IMG/VR virus record: IMGVR_UViG_2029527006_000005
Source of the DNA: a virus
Taxonomy: Duplodnaviria > Heunggongvirae > Uroviricota > Caudoviricetes
DNA: 64,000 bases
Strand: one strand, 5' to 3'
The translations under genes and the position numbers were made by a program. Shown here in pieces: positions 742 through 35,362 of this stretch. The first letter of the stretch is position 1. The number at the start of each line of letters is the position of its first letter. The notes under the pieces were generated by a model, which worked only from the letters and a program-made list of their open reading frames with translations, was not told the origin of the DNA and did no database searches.

Positions 742-816
742 TGGTGCGGGTGGAGAGAATCGAACTCTCATCCAATGGGTGGAAGCCATTGATAATAACC
801 ATTATACGACACACGC
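742..816 (-). tRNA. tRNA-Gly (anticodon UCC)
   Basis: cloverleaf on the reverse complement: acceptor GCGTGTG/CACCCGC (one mismatch), anticodon stem CAATGG/CCATTG with loop CTTCCAC, T-arm GAGAG-TTCGATT-CTCTC, encoded CCA. Confidence 0.65.
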
Positions 817-851
817 GATTTTATTTTTTATAAGAAACATTTCTTGAAATT

Positions 852-1322
852 CTAGATATTTGCATATGATGCACACCAAAAAACTTCACCCAAATATCTA
901 CAGGTTTCACCATTTTTACGACGCATTCGAATTTCAATAACTTGTTCATCAGTTAGCTTACTATTTGTATTAGATGAACCTCTTTGTGCGGTAGCTAAAC
1001 CAGTTAGATAAGCATGTTGTGTATTTTCAGAATCGGTTGCCCATTCTAAATTACTTAAATTATTGTTTAATTTATTACCATCAATATGATTGACCGTTCG
1101 TTTTTGTTCTGGATTAGGTATAAATGCATCTGCAACAACTCTATGAATTTTAAAACATTTACATATTCCAGTACGTCCACCTATTCTAGTGGAAACTGTG
1201 TAATAACCATTCTTACTTATTGTTTGTTTTAAAACTTTTTGTGTTCGTTTACTGAACAATCTTCCTTGGTTGCTAACTTGAAAATATTCCTCATAGCCAA
1301 CAACATCTTTCCATTCTTCCAT
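852..1322 (-). CDS. HNH homing endonuclease
   Basis: motif NHIDGNKLNNNLSNLEWAT (HNH_3 type) and an N-terminal NUMOD/AP2-like region; typical phage mobile endonuclease. Confidence 0.8.
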   Translation of the reverse strand: MEEWKDVVGYEEYFQVSNQGRLFSKRTQKVLKQTISKNGYYTVSTRIGGRTGICKCFKIHRVVADAFIPNPEQKRTVNHIDGNKLNNNLSNLEWATDSENTQHAYLTGLATAQRGSSNTNSKLTDEQVIEIRMRRKNGETCRYLGEVFWCASYANI

Positions 1323-1635
1323 ACATATTCCATTAAAAAATGTAAGGCCACCTTTACCAATAAATGACTTCTTACCCGTTTTCTTCCAACTCTACGTGTA
1401 CACCCTAGTAGTGAGTTAGGATGTGATGGACTCGTGTCAGCTATAAAAGCTACTAGGGATATGGGTCACTAATTCCCTCACCATGTCTAGTACTGGCAAC
1501 AACCGCTCTAGTATTTTAATTCTTCTTTAATGCTGCGTTAATGAATTCCGACAATTGTTCTTTTGTCATTATCGGTTTTATCGGTCTATTAAGATTCTTT
1601 TTGCGTTTCATAATATCCTCTTTAATTAATAGGTG

Positions 1636-1824
1636 CTACATTTTATTTACATCAAAACGTAGCCAAAATACGTACCGAAAAGAGCGAAGCAACAATGCAA
1701 CATAGCAACTTTTCAACTGAGCAATCGAGTTTATAACCGTTTCCACAACCAAGCAAGATTTAATATCTGTAATAGTATACGGAGCAAACTCTTTTTTCAT
1801 CAAATGTCTCTCAAGGAGTAACAT
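1636..1824 (-). CDS. hypothetical small protein (62 aa)
   Basis: ORF track only; weak. Confidence 0.25.
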   Translation of the reverse strand: MLLLERHLMKKEFAPYTITDIKSCLVVETVINSIAQLKSCYVALLLRSFRYVFWLRFDVNKM

Positions 1825-1894
1825 TTAATACCATGTAGTATTAGATTTCTCTAATATGCTCTTTCCGGTAAGGGAGGTCAGCGGTTAAGCGACA

Positions 1895-2494
1895 TTATAG
1901 AACTTGTAGTGCCTTAAGCAATGGCTTGTGCTTATCATCAATCTCTACTTGTAGTAGGTTGTTGATATACGCTAGCTTATCGCTAACAGTCTCTTGCTCT
2001 TGTTTGAGTTCAACATAGACTTCGTTGAAATCATTGTGATCTTCTACTGCGTAACCAGCAACTTGTACTTCACTGTTTGAGTACATAGAACCTGAGTTCT
2101 TTGCTGCGTCCTGTACTTGACGTTTGATATTAAGTACACGCTTCTCTTGTGAATCTTTGCTTGGTGCGGTGAACTGTGCTAGTACACGCATTTTGGATTC
2201 AATTTGAACCTTACGGTTTAGTAGAGAATCGATACTGTCACCGTCCACAACTTGGCTATTAAGTGCCTGTACTGCTGCACGAATTTCGCTGATGACTTCT
2301 ACAACGATTAGGGATTGCACCACTGATAGTTTGTTAGAGTTTTCTACTGCTGAAATCACTGCTAGAATCTCTTCTTCGTCTGCACTGTGGTGTAGCTTTG
2401 CAGCACCAACACGTACTGATAGATGAGATTGTAGGTCTTTAACAAGACGGTGTGCTTTACGTAGACTTAGTTTCATATATTTTGGATTCTCCAA
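1895..2494 (-). CDS. hypothetical protein (199 aa, coiled-coil-like)
   Basis: long minus ORF packed tightly with its neighbours. Confidence 0.55.
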   Translation of the reverse strand: MENPKYMKLSLRKAHRLVKDLQSHLSVRVGAAKLHHSADEEEILAVISAVENSNKLSVVQSLIVVEVISEIRAAVQALNSQVVDGDSIDSLLNRKVQIESKMRVLAQFTAPSKDSQEKRVLNIKRQVQDAAKNSGSMYSNSEVQVAGYAVEDHNDFNEVYVELKQEQETVSDKLAYINNLLQVEIDDKHKPLLKALQVL

Positions 2495-2513
2495 TTAGCA
2501 AATTTACAATTTA

Positions 2514-2729
2514 TTAGGATAAGACAATGATATCGACTAATGCTTTGCTCGATTCAACATCAATGCAATCACTAAAATCTTCACCACTTTCTTCAACGAT
2601 ATCACCAGCTTTATAACTACTTACTGATGTACAACGCCCTAGAGCGTAATCGTCATATGGACAGGATTGAATAACAATCTCTGCGTCGGGATTCTTTTCA
2701 ATCACAGCGAGCAATTCGTTAGCTTTCAT
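2514..2729 (-). CDS. hypothetical protein (71 aa)
   Basis: ORF directly downstream of conserved promoter copy P1. Confidence 0.5.
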   Translation of the reverse strand: MKANELLAVIEKNPDAEIVIQSCPYDDYALGRCTSVSSYKAGDIVEESGEDFSDCIDVESSKALVDIIVLS

Positions 2730-33392: not shown

Positions 33393-33393
33393 A

Positions 33394-33747
33394 CTAATTC
33401 CTTTTAACCCTTAAAATAGGGTGTACATCTAGTTCTGCTTTTTGTAATTCTTCAGCCGATTGTTCGGGACTCATATCTCGGCATTTTATCCAAGTGTCTC
33501 TGCGAACCATCCGGGCTTCTTGTTGCATCACCTTGAATTCTTCAAGTTGCAACGGGGTGAAGCGTACTAATACGTCTTCAGTCCAAATTTGCACAGTACC
33601 GGAATCCCAATCAAATCCGTCATAAATTGCACGGATTTTAGTACATGGTGTCCCGCCTACTGTGTCTTGTGATGATTTTACTGGAATAACCACCTCTTTG
33701 TCAAGAGGTAATTGTTCTAAAATTGCAATCAATTCACCAACTCGCAT
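33394..33747 (-). CDS. hypothetical protein (117 aa)
   Basis: ORF track. Confidence 0.55.
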   Translation of the reverse strand: MRVGELIAILEQLPLDKEVVIPVKSSQDTVGGTPCTKIRAIYDGFDWDSGTVQIWTEDVLVRFTPLQLEEFKVMQQEARMVRRDTWIKCRDMSPEQSAEELQKAELDVHPILRVKRN

Positions 33748-33749
33748 AT

Positions 33750-35003
33750 TTATTTCTCACCTTCTTCAATGAAGTCCACGATGAAATTAACATCGAACAA
33801 TGAACTTGAAAGGTACTGACCTAGGATTGAATATTTAGAGGCGTTGAACTCGACAGCAGTCATTTCTACACCATCAGGATATTCTAACACAAGATCATTG
33901 ATTAGTGCAAGTGCTACTGCACCTCTTTCTGGTCGATAATCATCTTCTGCACGTTCTTTCATGCGTTGCAATGATACATCAAATTTAGCACTGATTTTTG
34001 CTACAGCAACATTTTCTTCATCTTCAGATTCTTGTTGTAAGTTCATTAGTTCTGAACCCATTTTCACAAGGAATGATGCATGTTCAGTTTTATCGTATTC
34101 CTGTCCAGCAGTCATTGGTGGTAGAATAGGAATCTGGAATGCATTCAATGCACACACAACAAATGTTAGTTCACACATACTTCGAATTACATCTAATTCG
34201 TTTTGACCTTCTAGTACTTTACCAGTAATTTCATTGTACTTAGTGTTGATGTTTGATTTACTTGCAGAGTTCTTATATGAATACTCAACTCGATTAGAAT
34301 GACTTTCTAGGCTAAATTGTGCCATACGCACAGCCTTATCATAGATTTCTTCAGCAGTAATGATTTGACCAAACTTATTGGTTTCGCCAATACTATCACC
34401 AAAAAGATCCATATACTCGGTAACCTTCTCTTCGAATTCTCTTGAATTACCGGAAAGTTCTTGTACTTTATTATCAAAGTATTCTTGTAGTGAAACATCT
34501 TGGAAGTGATTATTGAAATACATTTCATGTCGGCGTTGCATCATTAAATTATACACACTTTCATGAATAGGGAAATATCCCATGAACTTACGTCGAGATA
34601 AATCTGAAGTACTGTCAAGATTCATATTACCAAAGTGAATCAATTCTCCAATCTTTTCCCAATCCAAATCTTCTGCTTTCAAATCATAACCATCTCGATC
34701 TGATACATAAGTTTTATTTGCGGGCATTGGAGTACTGGTATAGTTCTCTTTAATGATTGCTAGATTGTATTGGGAATTGAAATTATCAACCATTTCAAAA
34801 TTACCATAATCTTCATATGTTGCATCCATTGGTAAACCCAAGAATGTAAAATAATCATAGCAATAGCAACCGAAGCCTTTATGCATATCTGTTGAATATT
34901 GAGAATGAAGAGATGTTGTACTTACAATTGGGATCAATTTAACTCGATCTCCGGGGTTAATACTGCACTTACTTACTGCACATGATGCGTTAAAGCTACC
35001 CAT
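33750..35003 (-). CDS. hypothetical protein (417 aa)
   Basis: long ORF; no recognisable motif. Confidence 0.6.
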   Translation of the reverse strand: MGSFNASCAVSKCSINPGDRVKLIPIVSTTSLHSQYSTDMHKGFGCYCYDYFTFLGLPMDATYEDYGNFEMVDNFNSQYNLAIIKENYTSTPMPANKTYVSDRDGYDLKAEDLDWEKIGELIHFGNMNLDSTSDLSRRKFMGYFPIHESVYNLMMQRRHEMYFNNHFQDVSLQEYFDNKVQELSGNSREFEEKVTEYMDLFGDSIGETNKFGQIITAEEIYDKAVRMAQFSLESHSNRVEYSYKNSASKSNINTKYNEITGKVLEGQNELDVIRSMCELTFVVCALNAFQIPILPPMTAGQEYDKTEHASFLVKMGSELMNLQQESEDEENVAVAKISAKFDVSLQRMKERAEDDYRPERGAVALALINDLVLEYPDGVEMTAVEFNASKYSILGQYLSSSLFDVNFIVDFIEEGEK

Positions 35004-35026
35004 ATAAAACCTCGTATTTTTTAAAA

Positions 35027-35250
35027 TTATTTGGAAATTTCACCAATCGCTGCTATTTCATCAATATAAATCGTGACATTCCAATATTCAGTATTGGATG
35101 GATGTGGAATAACTGGTATGCGAACTACTATATAATTATTCGATTTAAATGAAATAAATTTACCAGATATTGGTGAATCTTTTCCTCTCAAATATACTAT
35201 AACCCGATCAATTTCAGGTTTTAAACTTTCAATTACTTTAATTATAGACA
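35027..35250 (-). CDS. hypothetical protein (about 74 aa)
   Basis: track ORF 35027..35356 trimmed; its first 35 codons translate the tRNA (VGSNPTSS = T-arm); the internal ATG at 35248-35250 follows AGGAGA. Confidence 0.45.
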
Positions 35251-35271
35251 TTTTTTTTGTCTCCTGTTCAG

Positions 35272-35362
35272 TGGTGGAAGATGTGGGATTCGAACCCACG
35301 ATACGCTTTCGCGTATAACGATTTAGTAGACCGTCGCGTTCAACCAACTCTGCCAACCTTCC
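35272..35362 (-). tRNA. tRNA-Ser-like (class II), apparent anticodon ACU
   Basis: acceptor GGAAGGT/ATCTTCC, Ser-like D region GGCAGAGTTGGTTGAACGC, anticodon stem ACGGT/ATCGT with loop CTACTAA, variable hairpin TATACGC-GAAA-GCGTATC, T-arm GTGGG-TTCGAAT-CCCAC, CCA; the predicted TSS of promoter copy 7 lies at its 5' end. Confidence 0.6.

Follow-up and report, generated by a model that had tools for sequence, protein, structure and literature searches.

The viral record IMGVR_UViG_2029527006_000005 (IMG/VR; Caudoviricetes) is represented here by a stretch of 64,000 nt, referred to throughout as the window, whose transfer RNA (tRNA) genes were analysed computationally. The window holds at least 13 working-looking tRNA genes, ten of them ordinary and three unorthodox, and the conservation of the latter suggests that they, too, are most likely working adaptors, which would be charged and used on the ribosome. 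The three are a tRNA-Arg that does not fold as a cloverleaf, a tRNA-Asn with a long variable arm and a tRNA-Ser with the anticodon ACU:

26201-26282, minus strand: candidate non-cloverleaf tRNA-Arg(UCU), 82 nt (Rfam 35.1 bits; covariation in four helices; Arg-only anticodons)
6922-7010, minus strand: tRNA-Asn(GUU) with a long variable arm (ARAGORN; Rfam 46.9 bits; family alignment)
35272-35362, minus strand: tRNA-Ser(ACU) with a Ser-type variable arm and A73 (ARAGORN; Rfam 49 bits; conserved anticodon)

A further-reaching proposal, offered tentatively and with somewhat less than even confidence, is that a widespread natural tRNA with a circularly permuted D/anticodon core serves bacterial translation as the AGA reader of many phages. 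The three elements point to working tRNAs because their anticodon loops are invariant, their stem changes are compensatory and the matching codons are heavily used. Stem decay, anticodon drift and poorly conserved orthologs, by which a pseudogene would be recognised, are absent in all three. The initial annotation had read the loops CTGTTAA at 6922-7010 and CTACTAA at 35272-35362, both of which are exact in the sequence, and ARAGORN gives gtt and act for them, not the ordinary gta and gct against which the unusual reading had been set beforehand. Its suggestion of decoys, processing signals or pseudogenes does not fit 6922-7010, 35272-35362 and 26201-26282, and may hold only for the elements at 12278-12362 and 5700-5727.

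A candidate tRNA-Arg with a permuted core

The element at 26201-26282 consists, in order, of the 5′ acceptor strand, UAU, CUC, A, an anticodon arm with the loop CUUCUAA, CGUUAAUC, GAG, UAAUUGGAGUAU, the T arm, the 3′ acceptor strand, A73 and CCA. Its canonical parts are a 7-bp acceptor stem, a 5-bp anticodon stem with a 7-nt loop containing U33, and a 5-bp T stem with a TTCRA loop (acceptor/T stems 7/5). As the initial annotation had recognised, it lacks a canonical D arm: the hairpin between positions 9 and 26 is absent, and only 5 nt (UCUCA) lead from U8-A9 to the anticodon stem. The Rfam tRNA model RF00005 nevertheless accepts the element with 35.1 bits (E = 3.7e-6, local region) against a gathering threshold of 29 bits, in an alignment that deletes 15 model positions (the D arm) and inserts 20 nt after the anticodon arm.

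Family members were collected in three pattern scans of viral contigs, each freeing another part of the molecule, and 105 distinct members were obtained. Among 27 type-1 members of the same length, 99.4% of the cells in the standard helices pair and 15 of 20 pairs change on both sides, a result that none of 500 shuffles reached; slid registers also fall far below the observed pairing. In the window sequence, the triplet that precedes the anticodon arm can pair in a 3-bp helix with a triplet beyond the arm; the D-loop-like segment UAANUGGA follows this helix, and a single base then precedes the T stem. A scan that left both triplets unconstrained found that the triplet after U8-A9-N covaries with the triplet right before UAANNGGA, the observed pairs being CUC/GAG, CGG/CCG, CCC/GGG, CGC/GCG, CAC/GUG, CAU/AUG, CGU/ACG, CUU/AAG, UCC/GGA and ACC/GGU. 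Pairing in this new helix amounts to 96.5% in 47 classes, compared with 58.8 ± 3.9% in shuffles (0 of 2000 as high), with 10 fully paired triplet combinations. RNAalifold, run on 58 diverse members in an alignment assembled segment by segment for this analysis, also predicts the helix. Covariation thus shows the D hairpin to be replaced by a helix of the triplets that flank the anticodon arm. The base two positions after the 3′ triplet varies together with the base right before the T stem (A-U 90 times, G-C 6 times), which is the signature of the 15-48 Levitt pair, with R15-like and Y48-like partners. A second helix (UAU/GUA or AGC/GCU) around the D-loop-like bulge is confined to certain subtypes and is not claimed for the family.

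In the fold that we propose, the core would run 22-25, 26, 27-43, linker, 10-13, 14-21, 48, which would be a circular permutation of the usual tRNA core: the D-stem strands would flank the anticodon arm, and the D loop would lie at the usual place of the variable loop. Such an order would keep U8-A14, R15-Y48, G18/G19 against the T loop, and an A after GG (a candidate A20, the main determinant for arginyl-tRNA synthetase, ArgRS). It would also keep ten stacked layers from the elbow to the anticodon loop (five from the anticodon stem, then a single base, three pairs and a mismatch like 13-22), and an L shape would still be possible. An intron, or a gene permutation that processing reverses, was considered and excluded, since no excision yields the canonical order.

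Permuted and split tRNA genes, as in Cyanidioschyzon merolae and some archaea, likewise have their segments in a non-canonical order; there the permutation affects the acceptor ends, and a canonical tRNA is recovered by processing. In the phage tRNA-Arg, by contrast, the acceptor strands stand in normal order, only the inner D/anticodon core appears to be permuted, and nothing suggests processing to the usual order. The D-armless mitochondrial tRNA-Ser (GCU/UCU) of metazoans, including nematodes, also has no D hairpin between the acceptor and anticodon stems and still decodes (PMC7609411). Mitochondrial tRNAs of this kind are shrunken, with a short connector and with D-loop/T-loop contacts lost, whereas the phage RNA, with 82 nt, is of full length; its D-stem-like helix and its D-loop-like segment, which contains GG, are retained but have moved 3′ of the anticodon arm, and it would, if functional, work with bacterial factors.

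Some points weigh against the permuted-core model. The basis of the model in three dimensions is secondary-structure covariation and analogy of positions, not a structure. At 3 bp the CUC/GAG helix is short, and it is missing from the RNAfold prediction for the window sequence alone. The contact of E. coli ArgRS with A20 takes place in an ordinary D loop, a setting that may not be reproduced here, and part of the high identity of the element across unrelated phage families may come from transfer by homing endonucleases rather than from selection.

The identity set of E. coli tRNA-Arg comprises A20, C35, U36 and A or G at 73 (PMC9976931). C35 and U36 are present in the window loop CUUCUAA, and the discriminator is A in the window and A or G in 90 of the 105 family members. 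GGA occurs in every true member of the first scan, in which this segment was unconstrained (later patterns required it); numbering its A as A20 depends on the permutation model. When the type-1 scaffold was fixed and the anticodon loop left free, the anticodon was UCU in 61 of 62 members and CCU in the other, both of them Arg anticodons. CCA is encoded in 60 of the 105 members. Phage arrays of 15-28 tRNAs that carry the element contain Arg-ACG and lack a canonical Arg-UCU, with one exception (contig L362), and the element fills an otherwise empty AGA slot in such large arrays. The likeliest reading is that it functions as a tRNA-Arg in which the D/anticodon core is permuted, and that it would be charged by the host ArgRS and read AGA. 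The sole CCU version of the rewired scaffold, in IMG/VR 3300049893_000411 (contig L348), has a 98-nt Arg-tct called by ARAGORN about 300 nt downstream, and the same contig carries an ARAGORN “Asn-att” tRNA, with A34.

By blastn, 268 GenBank phage records match the element, from Felixounavirus, T5-like Klebsiella phages, and PBECO4-like and 7t3-like jumbo phages. Among the matches listed it is labelled tRNA-TERM, tRNA-OTHER or an unnamed tRNA, or is unannotated, and no label says Arg. An ochre suppressor, in the sense of the label tRNA-TERM in Salmonella phage 7t3, was excluded: the sole covarying hairpin carries CUUCUAA, and the linker UUAA is missing from many subtypes. A further 46 members lie in prokaryotic assemblies, mostly on contigs of metagenome-assembled genomes and in a few isolates (Brucella haematophila, Devosia, Gellertiella); at least one stands within a dense tRNA array. 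Because ARAGORN misses the window copy and GenBank says TERM, OTHER or nothing, phage tRNA inventories and analyses of codon supply undercount Arg-AGA readers.

The element has a homing-type endonuclease gene as its immediate neighbour:

25668-26186, minus strand: open reading frame (ORF) of an HNH_3 homing-type endonuclease (Pfam HNH_3, 1e-12; 70% identical to the ORF at the same place in 7t3)

This ORF begins 15 nt downstream of the tRNA-Arg. Homing endonucleases habitually lodge in phage tRNA regions, and they may explain the spread of the rewired gene. It is very improbable that the element is conserved chiefly as a DNA target or passenger of these enzymes rather than as an RNA. In favour of this, HNH genes of different families stand directly 3′ of it in the window, in 7t3, in a T5-like Klebsiella phage and in Felixounavirus, and its nucleotide identity is 84-94% across unrelated phage families. 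Against it, the acceptor, anticodon and T stems are almost fully different between members yet still paired, while the new helix covaries, which argues for selection on the RNA fold. Many viral-contig members, moreover, lie within plain tRNA arrays.

If a permuted tRNA-Arg is indeed at work, cloverleaf connectivity would not be obligatory even outside mitochondria, the covarying family being a natural counter-example, and annotation pipelines would have systematically overlooked or mislabelled it. The tRNA-Asn with its long arm and the tRNA-Ser with A34 would then be two more phage designs outside the usual rules. The rewired tRNA-Arg would offer a test case for how far a changed connectivity is acceptable to ArgRS, EF-Tu, RNase P and the ribosome, and orthogonal tRNAs might be developed from such odd scaffolds. 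In a partial coverage of the literature, no account of the rewired phage tRNA-Arg, the long-arm tRNA-Asn or the phage tRNA-Ser(ACU) was found, and an earlier description is possible.

The long-arm tRNA-Asn and the tRNA-Ser(ACU)

The tRNA-Asn at 6922-7010 has a 17-nt variable region with a GAGA/UCUC stem, and thus a class II shape, together with a 3-bp D stem, G73 and acceptor/T stems of 7/5; its minimum-free-energy fold is a clean five-arm cloverleaf. Its anticodon lies outside the class II set (Leu, Ser, Tyr and Sec): it is GUU, invariant in all relatives. The closest of these is in 7t3 (98.9% identity), with others at about 80% in the Vequintavirinae phages GAP31, 4MG, Av-05 and 18-1-2, and the annotated records call it tRNA-Asn. 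In an alignment with 7t3, GAP31, Av-05 and 18-1-2, the CTGTTAA loop and G73 are unchanged, whereas the D stem (AUC/GAU to ACC/GGU), the variable stem (GAGA/UCUC to GGGA/UCCC) and the anticodon and T stems all carry compensatory substitutions.

A scan of viral contigs for CTGTTAA followed by a T loop at class II distance yielded at least 103 distinct parsed tRNAs with GUU, long variable arms and unrelated acceptor stems. Among the matches listed, G73 is present in 96 of 103 and U1-A72 in 62 of 103, and the variable regions measure 12-22 nt, with a hairpin of at least 3 bp in 96% of them as against 54% of shuffles. The arm is followed by 3-4 unpaired bases and so differs from the Ser-type arm of the window tRNA-Ser genes. 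The initial annotation had proposed GUU (or UUA) on a Tyr/Leu-like body; GUU stands, and the body belongs not to Tyr or Leu but to a large tRNA-Asn family. Origin from a phage tRNA-Tyr by A36U and A73G was excluded as a general rule by the great diversity of the family's acceptor stems and by its U1-A72 counts. Readings of the odd tRNAs in the CUA or UUA registers, and loops of 8-9 nt, were also excluded, only a 5-bp stem with a 7-nt loop being backed by compensatory changes.

The Asn identity set in E. coli and other bacteria consists of the anticodon GUU and G73 (PMC9976931). The window tRNA has G34, U35, U36 and G73, and because this set is kept it is probably an Asn-accepting tRNA with an added arm. 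Against this assignment stand the lack of a known role for the variable arm and the chance that another enzyme could charge the molecule. Allo-tRNAs resemble the phage tRNA(GUU) in combining a variable-arm hairpin with an anticodon outside Leu, Ser and Tyr, and differ from it in having acceptor/T stems of 8/4 or 9/3 and Ser or Ala identity (PMC5389517). Given its 7/5 stems and Asn identity set, a change of codon meaning is not the likeliest explanation for tRNA(GUU).

Over-long tRNAs were also seen elsewhere among phages. In Cronobacter phage GAP31 (L002:1249-1335), an annotated tRNA-Lys of 87 nt has an apparent 20-nt D loop and no variable arm, and is not called by ARAGORN. ARAGORN calls at IMG/VR loci include many tRNAs of 84-96 nt (for example at L048:4627-4711, L348:6269-6364, L131:1255-1341, L362:10912-10995 and L166:4926-5015) for amino acids whose tRNAs usually carry a short variable loop, namely Lys-UUU/CUU, Ile-UAU, Gln-UUG, Thr-UGU, Trp and Met. 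It may be that phage tRNAs in general, and not tRNA-Asn alone, tend to have additional arms or insertions.

The tRNA-Ser at 35272-35362 has acceptor/T stems of 7/5 and a variable arm made of U, a 6-bp stem (AUACGC/GCGUAU) with a GAAA loop, and C, so that one unpaired base stands on each side; the same junction is found in the tRNA-Ser(UGA) of the window and in the tRNA-Ser(GCU) of phage RaK2. The ACU anticodon proposed in the initial annotation is borne out by ARAGORN, whose call is act both in the window and in Munch, 7t3 and Erwinia phage Hallingskeid, and by the alignment, in which ACT is kept in phages of Salmonella, Klebsiella and Erwinia while an anticodon-stem G·U pair changes to G-C. 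Because its variable and T arms hardly differ from those of the RaK2 tRNA-Ser(GCU), the gene is taken to descend from a GCU tRNA-Ser by G34A, and it has been retained across phages of several host genera. A scan of viral contigs for CTACTAA at class II distance from a T loop found at least 61 distinct Ser-like ACU tRNAs, with G73 in 49 of 61 among the matches listed. In the window, Munch, 7t3 and Hallingskeid the discriminator is A73, not G73. The two tRNA-Ser genes of the window (9091-9183 and 35272-35362) have U73 and A73, respectively, as compared with G73 in E. coli tRNA-Ser.

Seryl-tRNA synthetase (SerRS) does not read the anticodon. A34 would pair in Watson-Crick geometry with AGU, the commonest Ser codon of the phage, and the host GCU tRNA would cover AGC, which would make the A34 reader a simple way to meet the codon demand. 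Bacterial tRNAs with A34 include tRNA-Arg(ACG), which is edited by TadA, and tRNA-Thr(AGU) of Mycoplasma. The tRNA-Ser(ACU) shares a genomic wobble A34 with both of these; its A34 lies in a split box (AGY for Ser, AGR for Arg), where inosine would be harmful, and its loop CUACUAA differs at position 36 from that of the TadA substrate, CUACGAA. Two considerations tell against a working tRNA-Ser(ACU). If TadA deaminates A34, the resulting I34 could misread AGA, and A34 presumably must stay unedited for that reason. The window tRNA also has A73, whereas E. coli tRNA-Ser and most family members have G73, and G73 is listed as a signal against the Leu and Tyr synthetases (LeuRS and TyrRS) in E. coli tRNA-Ser (PMC9976931).

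Recoding, in which the GUU tRNA would be charged with Ser (or Tyr), or the A73-bearing ACU tRNA with Leu, and the meaning of AAY or AGU would be altered, is quite improbable. SerRS recognises the long variable arm and ignores the anticodon, and the nematode nev-tRNAs, which are long-arm tRNAs with non-cognate anticodons, are a precedent. Allo-tRNAs, with a long arm and a non-cognate anticodon, are another (PMC5389517), and the tRNA(ACU) of the window lacks the G73 that acts against LeuRS and TyrRS in E. coli tRNA-Ser (PMC9976931). However, the GUU tRNAs largely keep the G73 and U1-A72 of bacterial tRNA-Asn, in the proportions given above for the matches listed, and the unpaired bases after their variable arm are not of the Ser type. 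AAY accounts for 5.6% of codons in the sampled window ORFs, so that wholesale misreading would be costly, and ACU reads a Ser codon in any case.

Counter-defence is a more serious, if still unlikely, alternative to codon supply as the main role of the three designs. On this account their odd shapes would mainly evade or soak up host nucleases that cut tRNAs, as resistant replacements or as decoys, a role compatible with decoding. Phage tRNAs have been proposed to resist anticodon nucleases through changes in the loop (PMC10264068), and a 2026 publication reports cleavage of the variable loop of tRNA-Tyr by Septu (PMC13096335). The recurrence of all three designs in many unrelated phage lineages also suggests a pressure beyond codon supply. 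Yet the Asn and Arg loops are the standard CUGUUAA and CUUCUAA, and nucleases that read the loop would therefore still recognise them. Among the nucleases known to us, none distinguishes tRNA-Asn or tRNA-Arg by its D arm or variable arm, and in the window no link was found between the odd tRNA genes and a defence or anti-defence gene. Working adaptors stay the preferred reading, and the common families of long-arm tRNA-Asn and A34 tRNA-Ser raise questions about identity rules, wobble editing and escape from tRNA-targeting defence.

The phage and its tRNA set

The window has a uniform G+C content of about 37%, with negative GC skew throughout, and 77 ORFs of at least 100 amino acids on the minus strand versus 7 on the plus strand. 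By megablast, positions 5000-12000 show patchy nucleotide matches of 78-80% to Salmonella phages of about 350 kb (7t3, SE_PL, Munch and PHA46) and to Klebsiella phage fENko-Kae01, and the tRNA order of the window is syntenic with that of 7t3 and Munch. Because the matches are only patchy and at this level, the window appears to be a piece of a divergent jumbo phage genome of the 7t3/Munch/RaK2-like group, distant from 7t3 and Munch.

Codon usage was computed over the 77 minus-strand ORFs. The commonest Ser codon is AGU (33%), ahead of UCA (25%) and AGC (9%), so that AGU is used 3.7 times as often as AGC. AGA makes up 17% of Arg codons; GAA, AAA and CCA are each the majority codon of their amino acid, and ACA (29%) and GGA (20%) are well used within theirs. 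The anticodons of the window set (UCC, UUC, UUU, UGG, UGA, UGU, ACU and UCU, with GUC, GUU, GUA and CAU) match the codons that the phage favours. The phage would in this way supply its own tRNAs for favoured A/U-ending codons, from genes spread among small ORFs and homing endonuclease genes, several of them with a putative promoter of their own.

ARAGORN finds 11 tRNAs in the window, all on the minus strand. The Rfam tRNA model finds 10 sites with 35-65 bits (E from 1e-11 to 1e-3), among them 26204-26282, which is absent from the ARAGORN calls. A scan for T arms and acceptors made for this analysis recovers all of the ARAGORN and Rfam tRNAs and adds a CAU tRNA. Genes of ordinary type include the following:

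742-816, minus strand: tRNA-Gly(UCC), canonical (ARAGORN; Rfam 53.6 bits)
5943-6015, minus strand: tRNA-Glu(UUC), ordinary, with one U·C mismatch in the anticodon stem (ARAGORN; Rfam 46.4 bits; aligns with the tRNA-Glu of 7t3)
6018-6094, minus strand: tRNA-Lys(UUU) (ARAGORN; Rfam 64.8 bits)
6097-6173, minus strand: tRNA-Asp(GUC) (ARAGORN; Rfam 56.6 bits)
7014-7094, minus strand: tRNA-Pro(UGG), with an 8-nt variable loop (ARAGORN; Rfam; fold)
7915-7998, minus strand: tRNA-Tyr(GUA), class II (ARAGORN; Rfam)
9091-9183, minus strand: tRNA-Ser(UGA), with U73 (ARAGORN; fold z = -2.66; 7t3 counterpart annotated tRNA-Ser)
18218-18294, minus strand: tRNA(CAU), Met or Ile2, with a 12-nt D loop (T-arm/acceptor scan; phage homologs)
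32682-32758, minus strand: tRNA-Thr(UGU) (ARAGORN; Rfam 59.2 bits)

The initial annotation had counted at least 12 tRNAs, dispersed as singlets or pairs rather than in one cluster. The count holds, at no fewer than 13, and the layout does not: nine genes form a loose cluster within 742-9183, and singlets follow at 18.2, 26.2, 32.7 and 35.3 kb. The element that it placed at 5944-6015, without a canonical D or anticodon arm, turns out to be the normal tRNA-Glu(UUC) with 46 bits, which has both arms and a 7t3 homolog; CCA is not encoded. The Met-CAU tRNA that it listed lies at 18218-18294 and is 94% identical to genes annotated as tRNA-Met or tRNA-Ile in 7t3, SE_PL, Munch and fENko-Kae01. Neither ARAGORN nor Rfam, even in a permissive E-value mode, detects it, likely owing to the 12-nt D loop and a G·A mismatch at 27-43, and tRNA counts in this phage group are therefore tool-dependent.

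Phage tRNA sets as such are well known, and the Asn and Ser genes have already been labelled by annotators. The T4 cluster, with its tRNA-Arg(UCU), and the arrays of Felix O1, T5, rV5 and RaK2 likewise supply phage-borne tRNAs for codons common in the phage and rare in the host, with homing endonucleases between them, and the Asn, Ser(ACU), CAU and Arg-like genes of the window have direct homologs in GenBank phages. Compared with these known sets, the AGA reader of the window is not a cloverleaf, its Asn reader has a class II-type arm and its AGY reader has A34.

Other tRNA-like elements and neighbouring sequences

Four further elements have tRNA-like features:

3320-3405, minus strand: tRNA-like RNA of 86 nt, called “Gly-tcc” by ARAGORN (ARAGORN; one related contig)
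3408-3483, minus strand: tRNA-like RNA directly upstream of 3320-3405 (fold z = -2.16; one related contig)
5700-5727, minus strand: T arm, 3′ acceptor strand and ACCA, without a convincing 5′ partner (T-arm scan)
12278-12362, minus strand: orphan tRNA-like element ending in CCCA, whose T arm is good and whose acceptor has 5 of 7 positions paired

In the 86-nt element at 3320-3405 the 7-bp acceptor stem is perfect, the D and T stems have 3 and 6 bp, the variable arm forms a hairpin and the 3′ end is A73-CCA; the anticodon loop is UCUCCAG (UCC, C33), and there is no match to Rfam models. It alone among the tested elements departs from 7/5, with an apparent acceptor/T of 7/6. Its neighbour at 3408-3483 has a 5-bp acceptor, a long hairpin and a T-like arm with the loop UUGGACU, ends in A-CCA, and has no anticodon-type loop. 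The two, each ending in A-CCA, exactly fill the 176-nt gap between two ORFs. Both recur, with diverged flanks, in one related 366-kb metagenome contig (a single contig from one metagenome scan). In this contig 81 of 86 positions of 3320-3405 are the same; of the five changes, three fall in the variable-arm loop, one falls in the D loop and one turns G-C into G·U. The homolog of 3408-3483 has the T stem CTGGG/CCCAG changed to CGGGG/CCCCG, a better acceptor and an internal domain that is 29 nt longer. Because these changes keep the structure while the flanks diverge, the two appear to be selected RNAs, which argues against decay.

For the element at 12278-12362 the initial annotation had given a perfect T arm and a CCA end; the T arm is indeed good, and the acceptor and the CCCA end are as listed above. 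It has no relatives in blastn against phages or in an exact-pattern scan. The 251-nt fold of the region of 5700-5727 is no better than that of shuffles (z = -0.15), no relatives occur in the collections searched, and neither this element nor 12278-12362 has an Rfam score. By blastn, the regions 3300-3500 and 12250-12400 have no phage homologs, and a search of viral contigs by neighbouring proteins found no homologs of the orphan elements. The element at 5700-5727 is probably either the 3′ fragment of a tRNA or a portion of some larger RNA, and both it and 12278-12362 may be fragments.

It is improbable that the odd elements as a group are pseudogenes, tRNA fragments or signals for RNase P or 3′-end processing, with no adaptor function, along the lines that the initial annotation had suggested for some of them. 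Such a view draws on 12278-12362 and 5700-5727, which offer only a T arm and an incomplete acceptor, and on 3408-3483 with its missing anticodon-type loop; in addition, fragments of tRNA genes are reported to be common in prokaryotic genomes (PMC9897764). Against it, the Asn, Ser and Arg loops are invariant and the stems covary over dozens to hundreds of lineages, unlike pseudogenes, and in the related contig 3320-3405 and 3408-3483 are conserved, with changes that are neutral for their structure.

A promoter-like motif, GGGACA-N(10-16)-GATATAAT, has 8 copies on the minus strand compared with 0 expected by chance; its fuller form is GGGACA(A/G)A-N-(T)GTGATATAAT. The copies are the following:

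2750-2778, minus strand: promoter-like motif
10229-10258, minus strand: promoter-like motif
10586-10614, minus strand: promoter-like motif
12231-12259, minus strand: promoter-like motif
26291-26319, minus strand: promoter-like GGGACAAA-N13-GATATAAT, 8 nt upstream of the tRNA-Arg
32815-32843, minus strand: promoter-like motif, 56 nt before the tRNA-Thr (32758)
35371-35399, minus strand: promoter-like motif, 8 nt upstream of the tRNA-Ser(ACU)
39432-39460, minus strand: promoter-like motif

Its extended -10 element and unusual upstream box give the motif the look of a phage-specific promoter, and three of its copies stand at singlet tRNAs. Within the loose cluster, one ORF of endonuclease type separates the Asn and Asp tRNAs, which are adjacent in 7t3:

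6190-6855, minus strand: ORF with helix-turn-helix and HNH-like motifs (EFHHL...CANCH; weak match to HTH_7)

The spacer after the tRNA-Glu contains, at 5856-5901 on the minus strand, 41-46 nt that are approximately 89-93% identical to unannotated intergenic sequence just downstream of denV in about 650 records, nearly all of them from T4-like phages (Tequatrovirus and relatives). A regulatory signal common to these phages, or else a small mobile element, could account for this sequence.

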